Below, in pieces: positions 37,798 to 45,665 of a DNA stretch of 64,000 nucleotides. Source of the stretch: an uncultured bacterium. Lineage in GTDB: Bacteria > Verrucomicrobiota > Verrucomicrobiia > Verrucomicrobiales > DEV007. The stretch covers positions 320,001 to 384,000 of the forward strand of contig CAXBMO010000003.1 of the NCBI GenBank assembly GCA_963977015.1, given 5' to 3'. The notes under the pieces are model-generated. The model saw only the letters and a program-made list of their open reading frames with translations. It was not told where the DNA came from and did not search any database. The position numbers and the translations under genes are program-made. The number at the start of each line of letters is the position of its first letter. Within the stretch, counting starts at the first letter, position 1.

Positions 37798-38352
37798 ATG
37801 ATAGAGTATTCAATAATGTTTAATTCGTTCGATCCGGAAGACCCCCTTTCAGTAACCAAAACGGATGATCACTTTATGGGGGAGGCTCTCCGGCAAGCTC
37901 AGCTTGCGTACAAGGCCACAGAAGTGCCGGTTGGAGCCGTAATTATCCATGAAGGCCGGGTCATCGCACGGGGCTACAATCAGGTTGAACTCCTCAAGGA
38001 TGCCACGGCTCATGCTGAGATGCTCGCCCTGACTTCCGCTCAATCCGCAATCGGTGACTGGCGGTTGACCGACTGTGACCTCTTCGTGACCAAAGAACCA
38101 TGTCCCATGTGCGCCGGGGCCATTGTCCATTGCCGGATCAGACGAGTCATCTTCGGTTGTTCTGACGCCAAGGGAGGCGCTGCAGGTGGGCTCCTCAACT
38201 TGCTACAGGAGCCTTCTCTAAACCATCAGAGCGAAATTACCCCCGGTGTCCGAGAAGAAGAGTCTGTCGCCATGTTGAAGTCGTTTTTCGCAGAGGCACG
38301 CCAGCGAAGCAAGGCCGACAAGGGCCAACCTCCTTTTACGTCGGCAAACTAA
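37798..38352 (+). CDS. tadA: tRNA adenosine(34) deaminase
   Basis: EVPVGAVI, DATAHAE, WRL, EPCPMCAGA, LNH, L..FF...R. Start may be at 37816. Confidence 0.93.
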   Translation: MIEYSIMFNSFDPEDPLSVTKTDDHFMGEALRQAQLAYKATEVPVGAVIIHEGRVIARGYNQVELLKDATAHAEMLALTSAQSAIGDWRLTDCDLFVTKEPCPMCAGAIVHCRIRRVIFGCSDAKGGAAGGLLNLLQEPSLNHQSEITPGVREEESVAMLKSFFAEARQRSKADKGQPPFTSAN

Positions 38353-38738
38353 ACCGGAGCCGGCGGCAACGACGCCAACGGAGTTGCTTTTTCCCGCAGT
38401 TCCTTCACAAAGCGGTTCTTTTTGTCCACCAAGATCGCCTTTGGCTCGATTGGTTTTTCAGAAAAACAAAAACCGATAATGATGATTTCCTCTCCTGCGT
38501 TGATCAAGTGAGCGGCGGCACCATTCATCCCAATTCGCCCACTCTCCCTTTCACCTTCGATCACGTAAGTCTCTAATCGCGCACCGGAAGTGTTGCTGAC
38601 GACCAATACTTTTTGACCTGGCCAGAACCCTGCGCGTTCCATCAGGTCCACGTCAATGGTGATGCTACCCACGTAGTTGACATCCGCCTCAGTGACGGTG
38701 GCTTGGTGAATTTTGCCTTGGAGTACTTCGCGAAACAT
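38349..38738 (-). CDS. panD: Aspartate 1-decarboxylase proenzyme
   Basis: KIHQATVT, YVG|SITID self-cleavage site, G.RLETYVI, NGAAA. Start set at MFREVL. Confidence 0.95.
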   Translation of the reverse strand: MFREVLQGKIHQATVTEADVNYVGSITIDVDLMERAGFWPGQKVLVVSNTSGARLETYVIEGERESGRIGMNGAAAHLINAGEEIIIIGFCFSEKPIEPKAILVDKKNRFVKELREKATPLASLPPAPV

Positions 38739-38856
38739 CAAAAGATGCAGTTTGAGATGAAAAACAAGCATTACGGTCCAATCAGATGCTGGTGAAATCA
38801 ACTCTTAAGGGCAATGCTGACACAGGTGAGACATCAAGCACTGCTTTTCGGCCCCA

Positions 38857-41800
38857 TCAAAGTAGTTCTTCGATTTTGGACCCAACGGCTTCTGCGGCAA
38901 CTTCCAGGGAATCCGAACCACGCAGCGAAACCACCCTCAATCCGCCGCTGATGCACTTGGACCACCCTAGATCTGAGTTCTCGGCTCTGAAAAACGACTT
39001 GGAAGCCCCCAACCTCAAGAGGGCAACATTCCCCGCATAGGATTCATCGAGATGCTCTTCGTCGAGCAGATACTGAATTCTGGCGAGCTTTTTCATTTTC
39101 TTCCAAACGCCAGCCACCTGCTTGTATTTCGCAGGCACATTCGCACCAATCCCCTCCCTTTTCGACAATCCGCCAAACCACCTTCGCCCGATCGAGGCAA
39201 ATCTCGGTTGAGCTTCAATGGGAATCACCAGGGGGACCTCTCGACCACCTTCCCGCAGTTGGCGCGCCATCTCGACTGCAACTCTCCCGCCAAAACCGAT
39301 TCCGCCAATCGAAACCGGCCCATCCCCAATTTGGGTTTGGATTTCAGACGCATAGTGCCTCGCCATGGAGCGAACGTCTCCGAATTCCTCAAAACCGCTC
39401 AAAGCGCGACTCGCAACGGCAAAAACCGGCCTCTCCGGTGAAACTGATGCAGCAATCCGCGAATAAATCCCCAACGCTCCCAGCCCCAGATCATGGATGA
39501 GAACGAGAGGGACTTTGCTTCCACCTTCCCTCAGCGGGATCAACCCAGACCAGTTGGATAGAGTATCGTCATAGCTTTTCAGGAACTGGCGTAATTCTGC
39601 GATGGTTTCCCGCGACCTCACCTCTTTGATTGAGACTTTCCGCTTCAACTGGTGGGTAAACGCAACCACCATTGCGGCAAGTCCATCCAGATCTCCTCCC
39701 AGTTCCGAGAATCGGAGGGTTTGATCTGACGGAACACCGCCAAGAATCTGTCCCCAAATAACGCCAACCTCCTTATCCAGATCCTCCCGTATCCTTCGCC
39801 TTCCGGTTCCGGGGGCTCTCTTTTTCGACAAATCAGACGCTGCGGGGCTGACTTTTTCAGAAGCCGTTTCCTCCTCCACCGCAGGTGACTCCAACAGTTC
39901 CACAGGTTTGTTTTTTTCCTGCTTCAACTCGGCGAATTCCAGATTCCCGCTTGGCATCCATCTCCCGGCAGTTTTCGCGACAAACCATCGTTCCCCCTTT
40001 ACCTCCACAATCGAACTCTGATCAGATTTCGATGAATCGGAATAGGCTTTGGCGATTGAGATTCCTCCAAACCACACCCTCCCCCACACGCCCAAGGGAA
40101 GAAGTTTTCCTGCCGAGTTTCGAACTTCCACCCGGGTGTTGTCCATGGGCTTGCCGAAGGACACTGGCGCCCCTGAATCACCGACTTCCACCGTATCAAA
40201 GGTGCTGGCGATTCCGGCCGTTTCCGTCTCTCCGTAGTAGGCGATCAACGTGGAATCCGGTATCCATTTCCGGAAATCCAGGACACCTTCGGTTTTCGGG
40301 CTCCCGTAAACAAACCAATGTCGCATGTTGACCAGATCCAATGCTTCCTCTTGTTGAATCGCCCTGATTAACGGTGCCAGCATCGCGTCGTCGGAAAACA
40401 TTCTCGAAACCCGATTGTTGATCAGAATCCGGATCAGATTCTCAGGATGGGTGACCGTTTTTCGATCGACGAGAACCACGGGAATTCCCTCGAGAAGCGG
40501 CACCAGTAGTTCGTAAATGAAATGGTGGGAGGCTGGCGAATGGTGGGCGCAGGCAGTTTGGCCGATTCTGAAAGGGTAGACACGCCAAAACCACGCAAAC
40601 CGATTGATCAAGGCTCGGTGGGAGATTTTGACGTAAGAATCATCAGACAACCTCAGAACCAAGGCCGTGGCGTCGGGCAGAATGGATACGGCACTGGCGG
40701 AATCGGAGTCGCGCTTTGAAAATGGGCGAAGCTTTTCGAGACTCAACCGCTTCGCGGGAAACTCCCTCACAACTGGAGCCGTTTGATCATGAATCCAAAC
40801 GACCGGCTGGAGATCCTCAAGAATTCCCCGAACGCCATCGGTCGCCTTACTTCCGTCAATGGGAACGACCGCCGCCCCGATTTTCCATATCGCGAGAAAG
40901 CTCGCCACCAGATCAAGCGAACGTTCTGCCGATATCGCAATATTTTGGCCCGCTGAAGCCCCCATGCTCCGCAATTGAACCGCGATCTGATTCACCCGGG
41001 TATTCAGCTTGTTGTAGGAGGCGTTTCCCTGGTTATCAACCAACGCCGTGGTCGCCGGCCGAAGCTCGTATCGGGCTTCAAAAAGCTGATGAATCGTTCT
41101 TCCGCGAAAGTCGCTCAACCGCTCCGTCTCATTCCATTCCGAGAGACTTTCCCGCTCATTCTCAGTGAGAAACTCAACGTCAACAATGGGCCGGTCCGGA
41201 TCAGAGGATAGCCAGGCCGCCAACGTCACGAGATGGCCCATGATGCGATTGGCGCCCCCTCTCGAGAACCGAAAGGTATTGTATTGGAGCGAAAGCCCGC
41301 TCTTTGCTGACCACGAAAAGGCGAGATCGCACCCTGCGGATGAAATTCTGGAGGCTGGGTATTCCCCAAACACGACGGACATCGCCGGACGTAACTTGGA
41401 GATATCTCTGGCTGCCATCTCCTCCAGCAACTCTCTCGACGGACTCGAACGCGAAACCAATCCGGGTTTTTCCAACAGATCCCGGAAGCTCGTCCGATGA
41501 TCGAAGGTTGATTGGACGACTGCAGTGGCAGAAACAAATCCAAGAATCAAATCGGCAATCGGGTCTTCGCAGCGCGGGCGAGTCAAGGGTTGGTCCGAAC
41601 TTGTCCCCATTGCTATCTGCTCGGTTTCCTGACCGTAACCGATCAACAGCGCCAAAACCAACGCCTCCCAAAGTTCGGCCAGCGAACGATTCACCTCCTC
41701 AGCAAACGCGATCATCAGTGGCTCAATTCCCGCTTCCAGCCGTCGCTCCACCTTGGCAAAGTGAAATCCATCACCCGGCTTCGCGGGGAGATCAAACGGG

Positions 41801-41904
41801 AGATTGATCGCGCTTTCGTCGGTGCACAGCTTCTGCTGCCAATAAGCATCGGCGACACTTTCAGAAACGATTTCAGGATTGGTGGGTAACGGACTTTCAG
41901 TCAT
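38857..41904 (-). CDS. NRPS-like protein (partial C - A core - T - TE) with degenerate catalytic motifs
   Basis: YWQQKL..LPFD, LILGF, L.YNT.RF, FLT..ER..L.EWNET, SY..LN..VNQIA..L, WKIGAAVVPID, SHRAL, YG.TE, GKP..NT, F.ELGGD, L.PLR.GG...PL.LIH, A.EMARQL. Active-site residues are absent (see findings). Confidence 0.85.
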   Translation of the reverse strand: MTESPLPTNPEIVSESVADAYWQQKLCTDESAINLPFDLPAKPGDGFHFAKVERRLEAGIEPLMIAFAEEVNRSLAELWEALVLALLIGYGQETEQIAMGTSSDQPLTRPRCEDPIADLILGFVSATAVVQSTFDHRTSFRDLLEKPGLVSRSSPSRELLEEMAARDISKLRPAMSVVFGEYPASRISSAGCDLAFSWSAKSGLSLQYNTFRFSRGGANRIMGHLVTLAAWLSSDPDRPIVDVEFLTENERESLSEWNETERLSDFRGRTIHQLFEARYELRPATTALVDNQGNASYNKLNTRVNQIAVQLRSMGASAGQNIAISAERSLDLVASFLAIWKIGAAVVPIDGSKATDGVRGILEDLQPVVWIHDQTAPVVREFPAKRLSLEKLRPFSKRDSDSASAVSILPDATALVLRLSDDSYVKISHRALINRFAWFWRVYPFRIGQTACAHHSPASHHFIYELLVPLLEGIPVVLVDRKTVTHPENLIRILINNRVSRMFSDDAMLAPLIRAIQQEEALDLVNMRHWFVYGSPKTEGVLDFRKWIPDSTLIAYYGETETAGIASTFDTVEVGDSGAPVSFGKPMDNTRVEVRNSAGKLLPLGVWGRVWFGGISIAKAYSDSSKSDQSSIVEVKGERWFVAKTAGRWMPSGNLEFAELKQEKNKPVELLESPAVEEETASEKVSPAASDLSKKRAPGTGRRRIREDLDKEVGVIWGQILGGVPSDQTLRFSELGGDLDGLAAMVVAFTHQLKRKVSIKEVRSRETIAELRQFLKSYDDTLSNWSGLIPLREGGSKVPLVLIHDLGLGALGIYSRIAASVSPERPVFAVASRALSGFEEFGDVRSMARHYASEIQTQIGDGPVSIGGIGFGGRVAVEMARQLREGGREVPLVIPIEAQPRFASIGRRWFGGLSKREGIGANVPAKYKQVAGVWKKMKKLARIQYLLDEEHLDESYAGNVALLRLGASKSFFRAENSDLGWSKCISGGLRVVSLRGSDSLEVAAEAVGSKIEELL

Positions 41905-42109
41905 TGCGACGCTGCATCGCGACAATTATGGACTACTGGAGTGGGTTGGATTGGCGATTGGCGGAAATTACTCACTAATGGGATGATTTTCCACCGGCAG
42001 ACGAGAGTTTCGCCGGAACGGACGCGATGTGCACTCTCGCGAGGCAGGATCGCTCGTTCTTTCTTCCACTTAGACGATGATCAACCCCGATCAGTCGCGA
42101 TTTTCTCCG

Positions 42110-42442
42110 TCACTTCCGAGGCATCTTCAAGACGACCGAAAGGAGCCAACATTGGATCAACCAAATCGGGCAAAACACAGATGTCGGGCCGGGAAATGGC
42201 ACCTTCCTGAATCCAGGCAACCATCGTGGATTGGGGTCCCCCGAATGGCGCTGACTGATTTCAAATCGATTTCCAATTCGGCGTGTGTCATAGCCAATCG
42301 CAACGCAACTTCGCTCAAACGAAAGGATCGCTGCTTTCTCTCCGAACGGAACGATCACGGCAATCCAGCCATCGCTTGTCTTGAAGGCCAGAATCGCAAG
42401 AAACACCATCAGGCCAATGACCATGGAACGGCGATAGGTCAC
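42110..42442 (-). CDS. Small hypothetical membrane protein
   Basis: GTG start overlaps the purD stop (GTGA); hydrophobic N- and C-terminal segments. Confidence 0.4.
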   Translation of the reverse strand: MTYRRSMVIGLMVFLAILAFKTSDGWIAVIVPFGEKAAILSFERSCVAIGYDTRRIGNRFEISQRHSGDPNPRWLPGFRKVPFPGPTSVFCPIWLIQCWLLSVVLKMPRK

Positions 42443-43692
42443 CCGAAATGCAACCTTCCGATGTCCGAGCGACGTTGGCAGCCCGGAAAATCCACTTTAC
42501 CAGCTTCACGATAAACTTTAGTCACGGCTTCCTCGCGGCTCTTCCCGGACGCGACGACGGCAAGCACCCGGCCTCCGTTCGTTTCGTAGTTTCCTTCGGG
42601 ATTCTTTCGCGTCCCCGCATGGTAGATGCGACTCCCCTCAACGTCCCGCAACCCTGAAATCACGTCGCCCGACCGAGACGATTCTGGATATCCGGCGGAT
42701 GCCAAAATCAGGCAAACGCTCCAATCATCGGAAAAACTGATCTGATCGGGTTCGAGATTTCCCTTCGCTGCATTCAACAGGTATTGGCTGAAGTTCCCGG
42801 AAACCAAGGGCATCACGGCCTGGGCCTCCGGATCGCCAAACCGGCAGTTGTATTCCAGCATCTTGGGCCCTGCGTTGGTCAGCATCAGCCCAAAATAGAG
42901 AAACCCACAGTAGTTGAGTCCATCAGCTTCCAGTCCCTCGATCGTCGGTTTGACCACAGTTTGATCGATCTCCCGGAGCATCGACTCGTCAATCAAGCCT
43001 GTGCGGCAAGATACGGCCCCCATTCCTCCAGTGTTTGGTCCCTGGTCACCATCGCCGATTCGCTTGTAGTCCCGCGCCGGAGCAAGAATTTGATAATCCG
43101 GGCCACTCACCGCCACAAAGATCGAGATTTCGGGTCCTTCCAAAAACTCTTCCACGAGAACCTTCCCCTCCCCAAACTCACCGTTGATGAAAACGCGTTC
43201 GAGAAAGGAGTCCGCTGACGCCTCGTCTGGACAGATCGCGACCCCTTTCCCCGCGGCCAATCCATCGAACTTCAAAACCGTGGGATAGCTGGAAATGGCT
43301 TCCTTGGCAGCCTGAAAGGAATCCGCCATCGCATAACCGCCGGTCGGAATTCCATGCTTGACCATAAACTGCTTTGCAAAATCCTTACTCGCCTCAAGTT
43401 GAGCAGCTGCTTTGGGCGGCCCCCAGCAAGGCACTCCGATCGACTGACAAACTGCCGCCAGCCCCTCATCCTTCACCAGGTAACTCTCTTCACCAGCGAC
43501 ACATAGGTCGATGGAATTTGCGCGCATAAACTCGCCCAAGCTGCTCAATCCGTCCGCCTCAACCGGCTTCGCAATCTGAAAGATCGCATCACTTCCCGGA
43601 AATGAGTAAATCTCCGTTTCGGTTGGAGATTCATGGATTGCGGTGATCAACGCATGTTCGCGTCCGCCTTTGCCTACTACCAAAATTTTCAT
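42439..43692 (-). CDS. purD: Phosphoribosylamine-glycine ligase
   Basis: G.GGREHAL, LEASK.FAK, K.DGLAAGKGV, EEFL.GPE, GPNTGGMGA, EYNCRFGDPE, GGRVL. Confidence 0.97.
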   Translation of the reverse strand: MKILVVGKGGREHALITAIHESPTETEIYSFPGSDAIFQIAKPVEADGLSSLGEFMRANSIDLCVAGEESYLVKDEGLAAVCQSIGVPCWGPPKAAAQLEASKDFAKQFMVKHGIPTGGYAMADSFQAAKEAISSYPTVLKFDGLAAGKGVAICPDEASADSFLERVFINGEFGEGKVLVEEFLEGPEISIFVAVSGPDYQILAPARDYKRIGDGDQGPNTGGMGAVSCRTGLIDESMLREIDQTVVKPTIEGLEADGLNYCGFLYFGLMLTNAGPKMLEYNCRFGDPEAQAVMPLVSGNFSQYLLNAAKGNLEPDQISFSDDWSVCLILASAGYPESSRSGDVISGLRDVEGSRIYHAGTRKNPEGNYETNGGRVLAVVASGKSREEAVTKVYREAGKVDFPGCQRRSDIGRLHFG

Positions 43693-45665
43693 GATTTCAC
43701 TCCGACTTCAGATTGAACCTGACTGAGCCAACGATCGTAGGGCCTTTGGTCTTCATTCTGTTCGATGAAGTTTACAAAGGCCTGGTTCACAACCCGAAAG
43801 CCACCCGGCGTCGGATAATTGCCGGTAAAATACCAGTCCCCATATTCCCTCCCCATCTCTCCGCGCATCGCCTCTTGGAGGTTCCCTATTTTCTGGAAGA
43901 TCAGAACGACTTCCTTGTCCCATTCCGGATCATCCGGAGTGACCCCCTTCGCCATTGCCTTGGAAATTTCCTCAGGAGTGAAGGGTTTGTAAATTTCCTT
44001 CACGAAGTTTCGTTTCTCACACTCATCACTTTCCAGAGCGGATTTACAGGCAATGTAGGTTTCGGCAATGATGTGCCCTTGATCCGTATCGAGCAGCAGA
44101 TCAATCGTGGCTGAAAAGGCGAGAAATTTCCCCAACTCGCTCATATCGATACCGTAACAGTCCGGAAACCGAATCTGAGGCGCGGTTGAAACAACCACGA
44201 TTTTGCGTGGCTTCAACCGCCCGAGAATCCCGATCAAAGACTCCTTCAACGTCGTGCCCCGGACGATCGAGTCGTCGAGCGCGACCAGCGTATCCACCCG
44301 TTTAATCTGACCGTAGGTGATGTCGTAGCCGAGGGCCACCATCTCGTTGCGTCCCTTTTCGCCACTGATGAACGTGCGGAACCGCTCGTCCTTGTGAGCC
44401 AACTTCTCTCCCTTTGGCCAGGGGCGGTCGATCAACTCATCCAACATTTGTTCCGCAGTGCCTTCCTCCATCGCAGCCGCGAGATCCTTTCGCAATTGCT
44501 GGCGCCGGCGACGGTTGAGTTCATCCATCATCCCGAGGTATCCGGTTTCGGCCGTGTTGGGAATAAAGGTGAACACCGCTTCGCCAAAGCCGCCTCCAAT
44601 CTCTTCCAGCACTTGATCCACGAGGGCTGCCCCCATGGCCTTCCGTTCGCGGTAAATGTCATGATCACTTCCGCGGCTGAAGTAGATCCGCTCAAAAGAG
44701 CAGGGCAAGCGCTCGCTCGGCTCCGTGAATTGTTCGATCCTGAAATCTCCTTCTTCGGTGTTTTTGATCGAAGCGACGTGACCAGGCTCCAGTTCCTGAA
44801 TTTCTCCCAAAGGCTTGTCAAAAACCGTCATCAACGGAGGCCTTTCCGACGCGAAGGCGATGACCTCATCATCCACGAAATAGTGACAGGGCCGAATTCC
44901 GTTGGGATCCCGCATCACAAATCCATCGCCGTTCCCCACCGCACCGGCAATCGTGTAACCGCCGTCCCAGTCCCTCGCCGCATTCTCCAGCACTTTGCGA
45001 ACGCAAAGTTCTTCGCTGATCCGGTCCGGAATGGTCGCACCGGGAAGCTCATTCTGATAGCGGTGATAAACCGCGTCGTGAGCTTGATCGAGATAGAAGC
45101 CAATATCTTCGAGCACGACCTGGGTATCGATATCCTGAAAGGGATGCTGACCGCGATTCACCATCGCCGTCTTCAATTCGCCAACATTGGTCATGTTGAA
45201 GTTCCCCAACAGCATCAAGGACTTCGTCTTCCAGTTCGATTCCCTTACTTGCGGATGGCAGAACTTCTTGTTCGAGGATCCACCGGATGTTGAATAGCGG
45301 AGGTGGCCGAACAGGTTCTCGCCACCGAACGCAAAGTAGCGCTTTACGCTTTCCGGACGGTCTTTGCTGATCTTTCCGTCTCGCTTCAGTCCACGATACT
45401 CCTTCAGGATATCGCCAAAGACGGGGCCCAACGCGTCCCGCTTCGCGGATCGCTCGTGAAACATGTAACGCTGGCCGTGGTCGACATTGACCTTACAACA
45501 GCCAAACCCGACGCCGTCATGGCCGCGGTTGCGCTGTTTTTGGAGGAGGAAGAAAAGCTTCTTCAGCCCCCAAAGTGGGTCACCGTACTTCTCGGTGTAA
45601 TAGCTGTGGGGCTTGCGGAGCCTGACATAGGCAATCCCGCATTCGTGCTTGATTGGGTCGCTCAT
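43689..45665 (-). CDS. purF: Amidophosphoribosyltransferase (long form)
   Basis: MSDPIKHE|CG Ntn nucleophile, RGHDG, GHLRYST, RDPNGIRP, ASE, CSFERIYFSR, PRPP loop LDDSIVRGTT, CYGIDM. Confidence 0.93.
   Translation of the reverse strand: MSDPIKHECGIAYVRLRKPHSYYTEKYGDPLWGLKKLFFLLQKQRNRGHDGVGFGCCKVNVDHGQRYMFHERSAKRDALGPVFGDILKEYRGLKRDGKISKDRPESVKRYFAFGGENLFGHLRYSTSGGSSNKKFCHPQVRESNWKTKSLMLLGNFNMTNVGELKTAMVNRGQHPFQDIDTQVVLEDIGFYLDQAHDAVYHRYQNELPGATIPDRISEELCVRKVLENAARDWDGGYTIAGAVGNGDGFVMRDPNGIRPCHYFVDDEVIAFASERPPLMTVFDKPLGEIQELEPGHVASIKNTEEGDFRIEQFTEPSERLPCSFERIYFSRGSDHDIYRERKAMGAALVDQVLEEIGGGFGEAVFTFIPNTAETGYLGMMDELNRRRRQQLRKDLAAAMEEGTAEQMLDELIDRPWPKGEKLAHKDERFRTFISGEKGRNEMVALGYDITYGQIKRVDTLVALDDSIVRGTTLKESLIGILGRLKPRKIVVVSTAPQIRFPDCYGIDMSELGKFLAFSATIDLLLDTDQGHIIAETYIACKSALESDECEKRNFVKEIYKPFTPEEISKAMAKGVTPDDPEWDKEVVLIFQKIGNLQEAMRGEMGREYGDWYFTGNYPTPGGFRVVNQAFVNFIEQNEDQRPYDRWLSQVQSEVGVKS

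Follow-up and report, generated by a model that had tools for sequence, protein, structure and literature searches.

An intact gene that has the domain order of a nonribosomal peptide synthetase (NRPS) and lacks the residues of NRPS chemistry raises the question of whether it is a relic in decay or is retained for a different role. Such a gene lies on the minus strand of a 64,000-nucleotide stretch of DNA from an uncultured bacterium of the Verrucomicrobiales lineage DEV007 (GenBank assembly GCA_963977015.1, contig CAXBMO010000003.1, positions 320,001 to 384,000; the whole stretch is referred to as the window). The coding sequence (38857..41904, minus strand) specifies 1015 amino acids and a stop, as taken from the open reading frame (ORF) list, the translation, Pfam and NCBIfam, and runs uninterrupted from ATG 41904 (or TTG 41925) to the stop codon at 38857–38859. 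A first-pass annotation, made from the sequence letters, had proposed an NRPS-derived pseudoenzyme whose fold is kept for a non-catalytic role, and this proposal is supported by the losses seen in the orthologs and by purifying selection. The protein belongs to a small, previously undescribed family of NRPS-derived pseudoenzymes from marine Verrucomicrobiales that is positionally linked to panD, the gene for aspartate 1-decarboxylase.

The order of folds in the protein is that of an NRPS termination module, i.e. the second half of a condensation (C) domain, the core of an adenylation (A) domain, a peptidyl carrier protein (PCP)-like domain and a thioesterase (TE)-like domain, all encoded on the minus strand. 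The C-terminal lobe of the C domain (C-lobe; 41119..41859, residues ∼16–262) is defined by alignments and modelled with a predicted local distance difference test (pLDDT) score of 80–90, the N-lobe with its HHxxxDG motif being absent. The A-core (39925..41109, residues 266–660; motif alignment and Pfam AMP-binding, 3.4e-41) is followed by a disordered charged linker (39790..39924, residues 661–705) in place of A-sub, the subdomain of motifs A8–A10, which appears as a gap relative to the family members G002, P0004 and P0005 and to the reference synthetases described below. A PCP-like four-helix domain (39565..39789, residues 706–780), in which the alignment reads GGDL for GGxS, and a TE-like alpha/beta-hydrolase domain (38860..39564, residues 781–1015; motif alignment and Pfam Thioesterase, 1.5e-10) complete the module. 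The AMP-binding match (PF00501, ANL superfamily) reaches 141.8 bits against a gathering threshold of 29.9; the Pfam Condensation match covers only profile positions 404–455 of 456 and, with 26.2 bits, falls under the 30.6 cut-off, and the Pfam scan reported no PP-binding match for the window protein. The NCBIfam NRPS models score far under their cut-offs (e.g. TIGR01733, 141 bits versus 317). Among solved structures in the PDB, the best relative by sequence is LgrA (3e-54), with solved NRPSs overall at 1e-30 to 1e-54, and an Atlas search with the C-lobe as query returned condensation-domain clusters only. AlphaFold2, run on a nine-row alignment, gave a mean pLDDT of 77.8 with all four domains ordered and with disorder only in the N-terminal 15 residues, the 660–706 linker (pLDDT 24–30) and a few loops. 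The best Foldseek matches of this model are the termination modules EntF, AB3403 and SrfA-C, at E-values of 1e-51 to 1e-53.

As references for the catalytic motifs, three ordinary C-A-PCP-TE synthetases were drawn from the homology search (P0008, P0021 and P0011). The window protein starts only after motif C4, at the YWxxL position, and the ∼230 alignment columns of the N-lobe that are present in the three references are missing in all family members; the 200 bp upstream of the gene have no coding capacity for an N-lobe, and the next upstream ORF is unrelated. At the A3 P-loop, the YTSGSTGxPKG of the references is replaced by LRLSDDS together with a 5-residue deletion (residues 409–428, window 40621–40680), A7 reads FVAKTAG in place of Y(R/K)TGD, and the ∼110 residues of A-sub, with the A10 Lys, are swapped for a stretch of ∼45 residues. 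The carrier motif GG(H/N)S reads GGDL (L739, window 39688–39690), and the TE nucleophile motif G(F/W/Y)S(S/M/F)GG reads GIGFGG (G870, window 39295–39297), such that in the TE triad the Ser position is occupied by Gly and the Asp position by Glu, and the His falls within a 3-residue deletion. The alignment bears out each of the six motif losses listed by the first-pass annotation and adds a seventh, in that the Asp of the A4 FD motif of the references, which is Asp235 of GrsA, numbered as in a review (PMC11253843), aligns to a His. Identity of the window protein to real NRPSs is 19–26% per domain, whereas the three references share 43–50% with one another. Fold and domain order are thus those of a functional NRPS, and HHxxxDG, A3, A7, A8–A10, the carrier Ser and the TE triad are all absent. 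Judged from its sequence, the window protein appears to be no longer able to load, carry or release an aminoacyl thioester, because it has no carrier Ser, no TE triad and no active-site lobe of the C domain, and its subclade has neither P-loop nor A-sub; it is accordingly predicted to be inactive as a synthetase.

These losses extend throughout the family. A word-indexed protein search found relatives at 62–63% identity (P0002 and P0003) and at 35–37% (P0004 and P0005) as well as a partial sequence, P0006; searches of genomes added orthologs in G003 (identical with P0002), G002 (42%, 1079 residues, open at a contig end) and G027. The G027 gene lies in two pieces at contig ends, which share an overlap of ∼45 residues, and is 78–80% identical to P0005, and P0006 appears to be this same gene called from a later start. 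Seven distinct members are therefore counted (the window protein, P0002/G003, P0003, G002, P0004, P0005 and G027), with 33–63% identity, and in every one the ORF is intact. The carrier Ser is missing in all seven (L, L, I, L, I, H and L at that position), as is the TE Ser (G, Y, H, R, Y, Y and Y); the TE His is likewise missing and the C-domain N-lobe deleted in 7/7, no member has Asp at the position aligned with the FD motif, and the family alignment has no conserved Ser or His that could stand in at either the carrier or the TE sites. The comparison with orthologs that the first-pass annotation had called for hence yields none with intact motifs.

Losses in the A domain differ in degree. A-sub is still present in G002 and P0004, where TGD, the A10 Lys and a Ser/Thr/Gly-rich remnant of the P-loop are retained; in P0005 and G027 A-sub is present, the A10 Lys is lost (Glu in both) and the A7 Asp is Met in P0005 and Glu in G027; in the subclade of the window protein (P0001–P0003), A-sub is deleted entirely. 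The earlier statement that every catalytic site is missing thus holds for the window's own subclade, but not strictly for the distant members that retain A-sub with TGD and the A10 Lys. The family has also gained invariant motifs. RPRCEDPIADLxLGF, AGCDLAF and QYNTFRxSRxGAxRxxGH in the C-lobe have no counterpart in real NRPSs, and WxWRxxP in the A-core is absent from them. These new motifs are concentrated in the C-lobe, which is also the domain that is best conserved over deep divergence (between subclades, its identity averages 40.8%).

The window gene and its G003 ortholog (63% identity) differ at a nonsynonymous proportion (pN) of 0.24 and a synonymous proportion (pS) of 0.76, the latter being saturated. 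By domain, pN is 0.18 in the C-lobe, 0.24 in the A-core, 0.096 in the PCP-like domain and 0.31 in the TE-like domain; the linker, at 0.51, is therefore unconstrained, and the lowest value, that of the PCP-like domain, compares with 0.11 for the neighbouring purD. Within the genus, the PCP-like domain is the most strongly constrained in sequence, and over the whole family the C-lobe is. On a shorter time scale, a ∼98% identical strain in run X2, from a different study, differs at 28 codons, 18 of them by synonymous and 10 by nonsynonymous changes, and has no indel over the parts of the gene covered by X2 contigs; depths there are low (3–7) and single differences are possibly errors, which would add nonsynonymous changes and not remove any. 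With 75% nonsynonymous changes expected, the binomial probability of 10 or fewer in 28 is 1.3e-5. The test of neutrality that the first-pass annotation had suggested accordingly comes out as non-neutral on both comparisons. Catalytic residues lost with the fold kept, and retention by purifying selection in several lineages, are the marks of a pseudoenzyme, and both are seen here. The protein is very probably a conserved non-synthetase derivative under selection.

The neighbourhood of the gene consists of housekeeping genes. The order on the minus strand of the window is purM, a divergent purF-like gene, purD, a 110-residue ORF (orf110), the NRPS-like gene and, after 118 bp, panD (38349..38738, minus strand; TIGR00223, 118.3 bits versus a cut-off of 106), beyond which lie a convergent deaminase gene and rpoN. 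There are no biosynthetic genes among the neighbours in the window. The setting described in the first-pass annotation, with the gene co-oriented between purM, purF, purD and panD and outside any biosynthetic cluster, is therefore correct except that orf110 intervenes after purD. The panD product has a canonical cleavage site (G24-S25) and T57 in the alignment; panD is the single PF02261 match in the window's genome (G000), and panC is on another contig. The mechanical ORF of panD starts at TTG 38801, and the region 38739–38801 (minus strand) lies upstream of its likely true start, which, going by homology and by the G24-S25 numbering, is probably ATG 38738. Promoter and terminator scans found no such site between the NRPS-like gene and panD, and the two genes are probably co-transcribed. 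Searching the window locus against Rfam gave no match at E up to 0.1.

The adjacency to panD persists where the rest of the neighbourhood does not. Within the relatives, G003 has purF-purD-orf110 and the NRPS-like gene followed by the first 38 residues of panD at a contig end, and G002 has purM-purF-purD-orf110 and the NRPS-like gene, after which the contig ends. In G027, panD begins 27 bp after the stop of the NRPS-like gene, yet both outer flanks differ from those in the window, with a divergent hybrid histidine kinase gene on one side, a BNR-repeat gene on the other, and purF-purD elsewhere. Thus, panD is directly downstream in all three genomes in which downstream DNA is assembled (G000, G003 and G027), in two genomic surroundings, and these genomes span the deepest split of the family (34–35% identity). 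Since this adjacency is kept through differing surroundings, the conserved unit is the NRPS-like gene together with panD. In the congener G001, purF-purD-orf110 is kept, the NRPS-like gene and panD are both absent from that place, and panD stands alone on another contig, in keeping with a joint movement of the two genes. G017 and G028 likewise have no NRPS-like gene, and panD there lies away from the pur genes. Of the purD/panD synteny that the first-pass annotation had singled out for checking, the purD part is conserved only inside the genus and the panD part across the deepest split.

Three further observations concern this neighbourhood. The orf110 gene (42110..42442, minus strand) belongs to no known family, and is context to the NRPS-like gene and not a proven part of its system; by tblastn it is conserved at 66% identity in G003, 54% in G002 and 51% in G001. 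It is probably a real small gene, because its pN is 0.21 against a pS of 0.78; it overlaps the purD stop and has a hydrophobic N-terminal stretch. As a partner of the NRPS-like protein it was rejected, being present in G001, which has no NRPS-like gene, and not found in G027. The 'purF' gene between purM and purD (43689–45665, minus strand, 658 residues) scores 98.6 bits with TIGR01134 against a cut-off of 350, has weak Pfam GATase matches, and is a divergent amidophosphoribosyltransferase-like protein that is 69–88% conserved in the relatives. Finally, at window position 41948, in the intergenic region upstream of the NRPS-like gene, the X2 strain has a 7-bp insertion (GATTGGC) that lies within a short CCAATC-type repeat of the putative promoter.

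The family is rare. It is present in 4 of the 134 species genomes of the bacterial family, namely three of the four of the window's genus and one of another genus, and G001, the remaining congener (87% complete), has no NRPS-like gene. A pattern scan of 185,579 genomes, one per species, recovered only the same three other genomes, all metagenome-assembled genomes of Verrucomicrobiota/Verrucomicrobiales, and a metagenome scan gave one marine contig (L029) that is 100% identical and offers no new context. In a family-profile search of 1.84 billion representatives, the best 150 matches were swamped by multi-module NRPSs of 4100–7900 residues and contained no usable new members, with P0001 and P0004 the only recognisable family representatives among them. 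An assembly artefact was considered and rejected, the contigs being identical in three runs of one study and the run of the second study giving the ∼98% identical variant. A search for sequencing runs that contain this stretch yielded no RNA run. Other NRPS genes also occur in the bacterial family. An NRPS ORF of ∼4000 residues (G000 contig C13:80434-81777 and its relatives; frames of 3985–4056 residues) is found with or without the pseudo-NRPS, and runs of free-standing single-module NRPS genes of ∼1100–1270 residues occur in G026 (contig C13:952888-960976) and G007 (contigs C150, C215 and C260). The latter are the nearest matches outside the family (25–30% identity), with ordinary FD motifs where these are alignable.

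What the retained protein does may be approached from its partner gene. A complete C-A-PCP-TE termination module would have become a free-standing pseudoenzyme, with four folds kept and the chemistry gone, that is inherited as a pair with a downstream housekeeping gene. Because it travels and is probably transcribed with panD, we tentatively favour a non-catalytic, panD-linked role in beta-alanine, pantothenate and coenzyme A (CoA) metabolism, a reading that we place a little short of probable. The protein would then most plausibly bind a ligand and act as partner or regulator of PanD, sensing a metabolite of the pathway, and the pockets put to new use would be those formerly occupied by an amino acid, an adenine nucleotide and a phosphopantetheine arm, i.e. 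pieces of CoA and its precursors. In its most specific form, in which the fossil pockets of a whole termination module bind CoA, 4′-phosphopantetheine or beta-alanine and the module, turned sensor, controls PanD, the idea is quite unlikely. It is from adjacency, and from adjacency only, that we infer the link to PanD; the NRPS-like protein is presumably expressed, and any ligand is a putative one.

Several results weigh against a tie to PanD. The adjacency is known from no more than three genomes, all of a single bacterial family. In the congener G001 (87% complete) there is no ortholog, and PanD is nevertheless canonical there, with 84% identity, which argues that PanD functions independently of the NRPS-like protein. 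An alignment of five PanD sequences from genomes with and without the NRPS-like gene contains no distinguishing residues. Prediction of a complex between the C-lobe plus A-core (16–660), the PCP-like domain (703–785) and PanD, run on these parts and without controls, scored 0.01 against a mark of 0.32 and counts neither for nor against the tie. The pocket positions aligned to 235 and 236 vary across the seven members (H/S/I/V/V/A/S and H/E/H/E/D/D/V, respectively), which would speak against a single ligand for the former amino-acid pocket throughout the family, and some adenylate chemistry may persist in G002 and P0004, which have A-sub, TGD and the A10 Lys. The same two positions bear on where the module came from. 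In A domains for beta-alanine, the anchoring Asp may lie one position later, a point on which the bolagladin paper is silent. VinN-type domains for beta-amino acids use the Asp equivalent to D235, as given in section 2.3 of PMC11253843. The residues aligned to 235/236 are V-D in P0004, A-D in P0005, V-E in G002 and S-E in P0002, and are not conserved in the family. Among 16 NRPS loci of relatives (L005–L020), 13 have an ordinary FD/DAS motif, two do not align there (L007 and L016) and one gave no match (L011), and panD was absent from the short flanks of all 16. An ancestral specificity for beta-alanine would be a tentative lead only.

The unchanged PanD of G001 is equally what would be expected if the protein were a non-catalytic scaffold or binding protein unrelated to PanD, for instance a partner of the ∼4000-residue NRPS encoded elsewhere, with the adjacency to panD an inherited gene order. 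This explanation draws on the same evidence for selection and fold retention, and G000 does have one large NRPS, a 4023-residue ORF on contig C13. Matches within ORFs of ∼4000 residues occur, however, in many genomes of the bacterial family that have no NRPS-like gene (e.g. G001, G004, G017, G025 and G028), so that the large NRPS is independent of the NRPS-like gene, and the NRPS-like gene and panD stay paired even with other genes on both outer sides. We regard this explanation as doubtful, though a serious competitor. The family-specific motifs of the C-lobe suggest another course, in which the old sites are dead and a new active site has arisen, e.g. among the invariant Cys112, Asp114, Asp118, Cys192, Asp193 and His224, or in which the shared function of the family is a carrier-independent reaction, still performed by the members with A-sub. 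The invariant polar residues do cluster in these motifs, and the A7 TGD, A10 Lys and P-loop remnant of G002 and P0004 would suit the second variant; adenylation cannot be the shared function of the family, however, because the window subclade has deleted the whole of A-sub, and we know of no enzyme with a lone C-lobe. A new enzyme of this kind is unlikely.

Simple decay would explain why all classical sites are gone, why the family is rare and why the gene is missing in G001. The gene would then be a relic of a former NRPS gene, possibly from a two-gene cassette of a beta-alanine NRPS and panD, in which stops are yet to come. Such a relic would not be expected to have its ORF intact in seven of seven members at 33–63% identity, with amino-acid change constrained on both time scales, new invariant motifs and a model that folds with confidence. 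The absent stops could be due to selection against polar effects on panD, but the deficit of missense changes is left unexplained by it, and decay is very unlikely indeed. The panD-linked, non-catalytic role remains the reading that we prefer.

The family would show that megasynthetase architecture is recyclable for non-biosynthetic roles, and for genome mining it is a warning that not every NRPS-like call is a producer. If the link to PanD is true, it offers a testable route to the regulation of beta-alanine and pantothenate supply outside enterobacteria, and, if the protein is indeed a sensor, it would be an independently evolved, non-enterobacterial counterpart of the feedback of PanZ/PanM on vitamin-B5 synthesis. 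The finding is confined to a clade that is very small and uncultured. Single domains that are dead within an otherwise working assembly line are already known; the open-access full-text and bioRxiv literature that we searched gave no account of an NRPS module that is free-standing, fully inactivated and conserved.

The nearest regulatory parallel is PanZ/PanM, which has a GNAT fold and is not known to have acetyltransferase activity. In enterobacteria, this protein binds PanD in a CoA-dependent manner and promotes its activation (extracts of PMC4410942, PMC3473359 and PMC3496974). The likeness is by hypothesis only, an enzyme-fold partner of PanD on one side and a panD-adjacent NRPS-like gene on the other, and would make the two functional analogues and not relatives; the Pfam and NCBIfam scans of the NRPS-like protein returned NRPS domains only and no GNAT fold or PanZ homology. 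PanZ/PanM further differs in being a GNAT protein of ∼130 residues as opposed to a 1015-residue NRPS module, and PanD is canonical here, also in the congener that has no such partner. Loss of catalysis with gain of a binding function has a parallel in glycopeptide NRPSs, in which a degenerate C domain, the X domain, acts as a platform for protein binding and recruits P450 enzymes. The X domain is one dead domain in an active assembly line and gene cluster, whereas here a whole free-standing module is dead and stands among housekeeping genes. In structure, the closest known systems are the NRPS termination modules EntF (5ja1/5ja2), AB3403 (4zxh) and SrfA-C (2vsq), which have the same domain order and folds as the NRPS-like protein; in contrast to them, it is without the N-lobe, P-loop, A-sub, carrier Ser and TE Ser/His, and has no biosynthetic neighbours.

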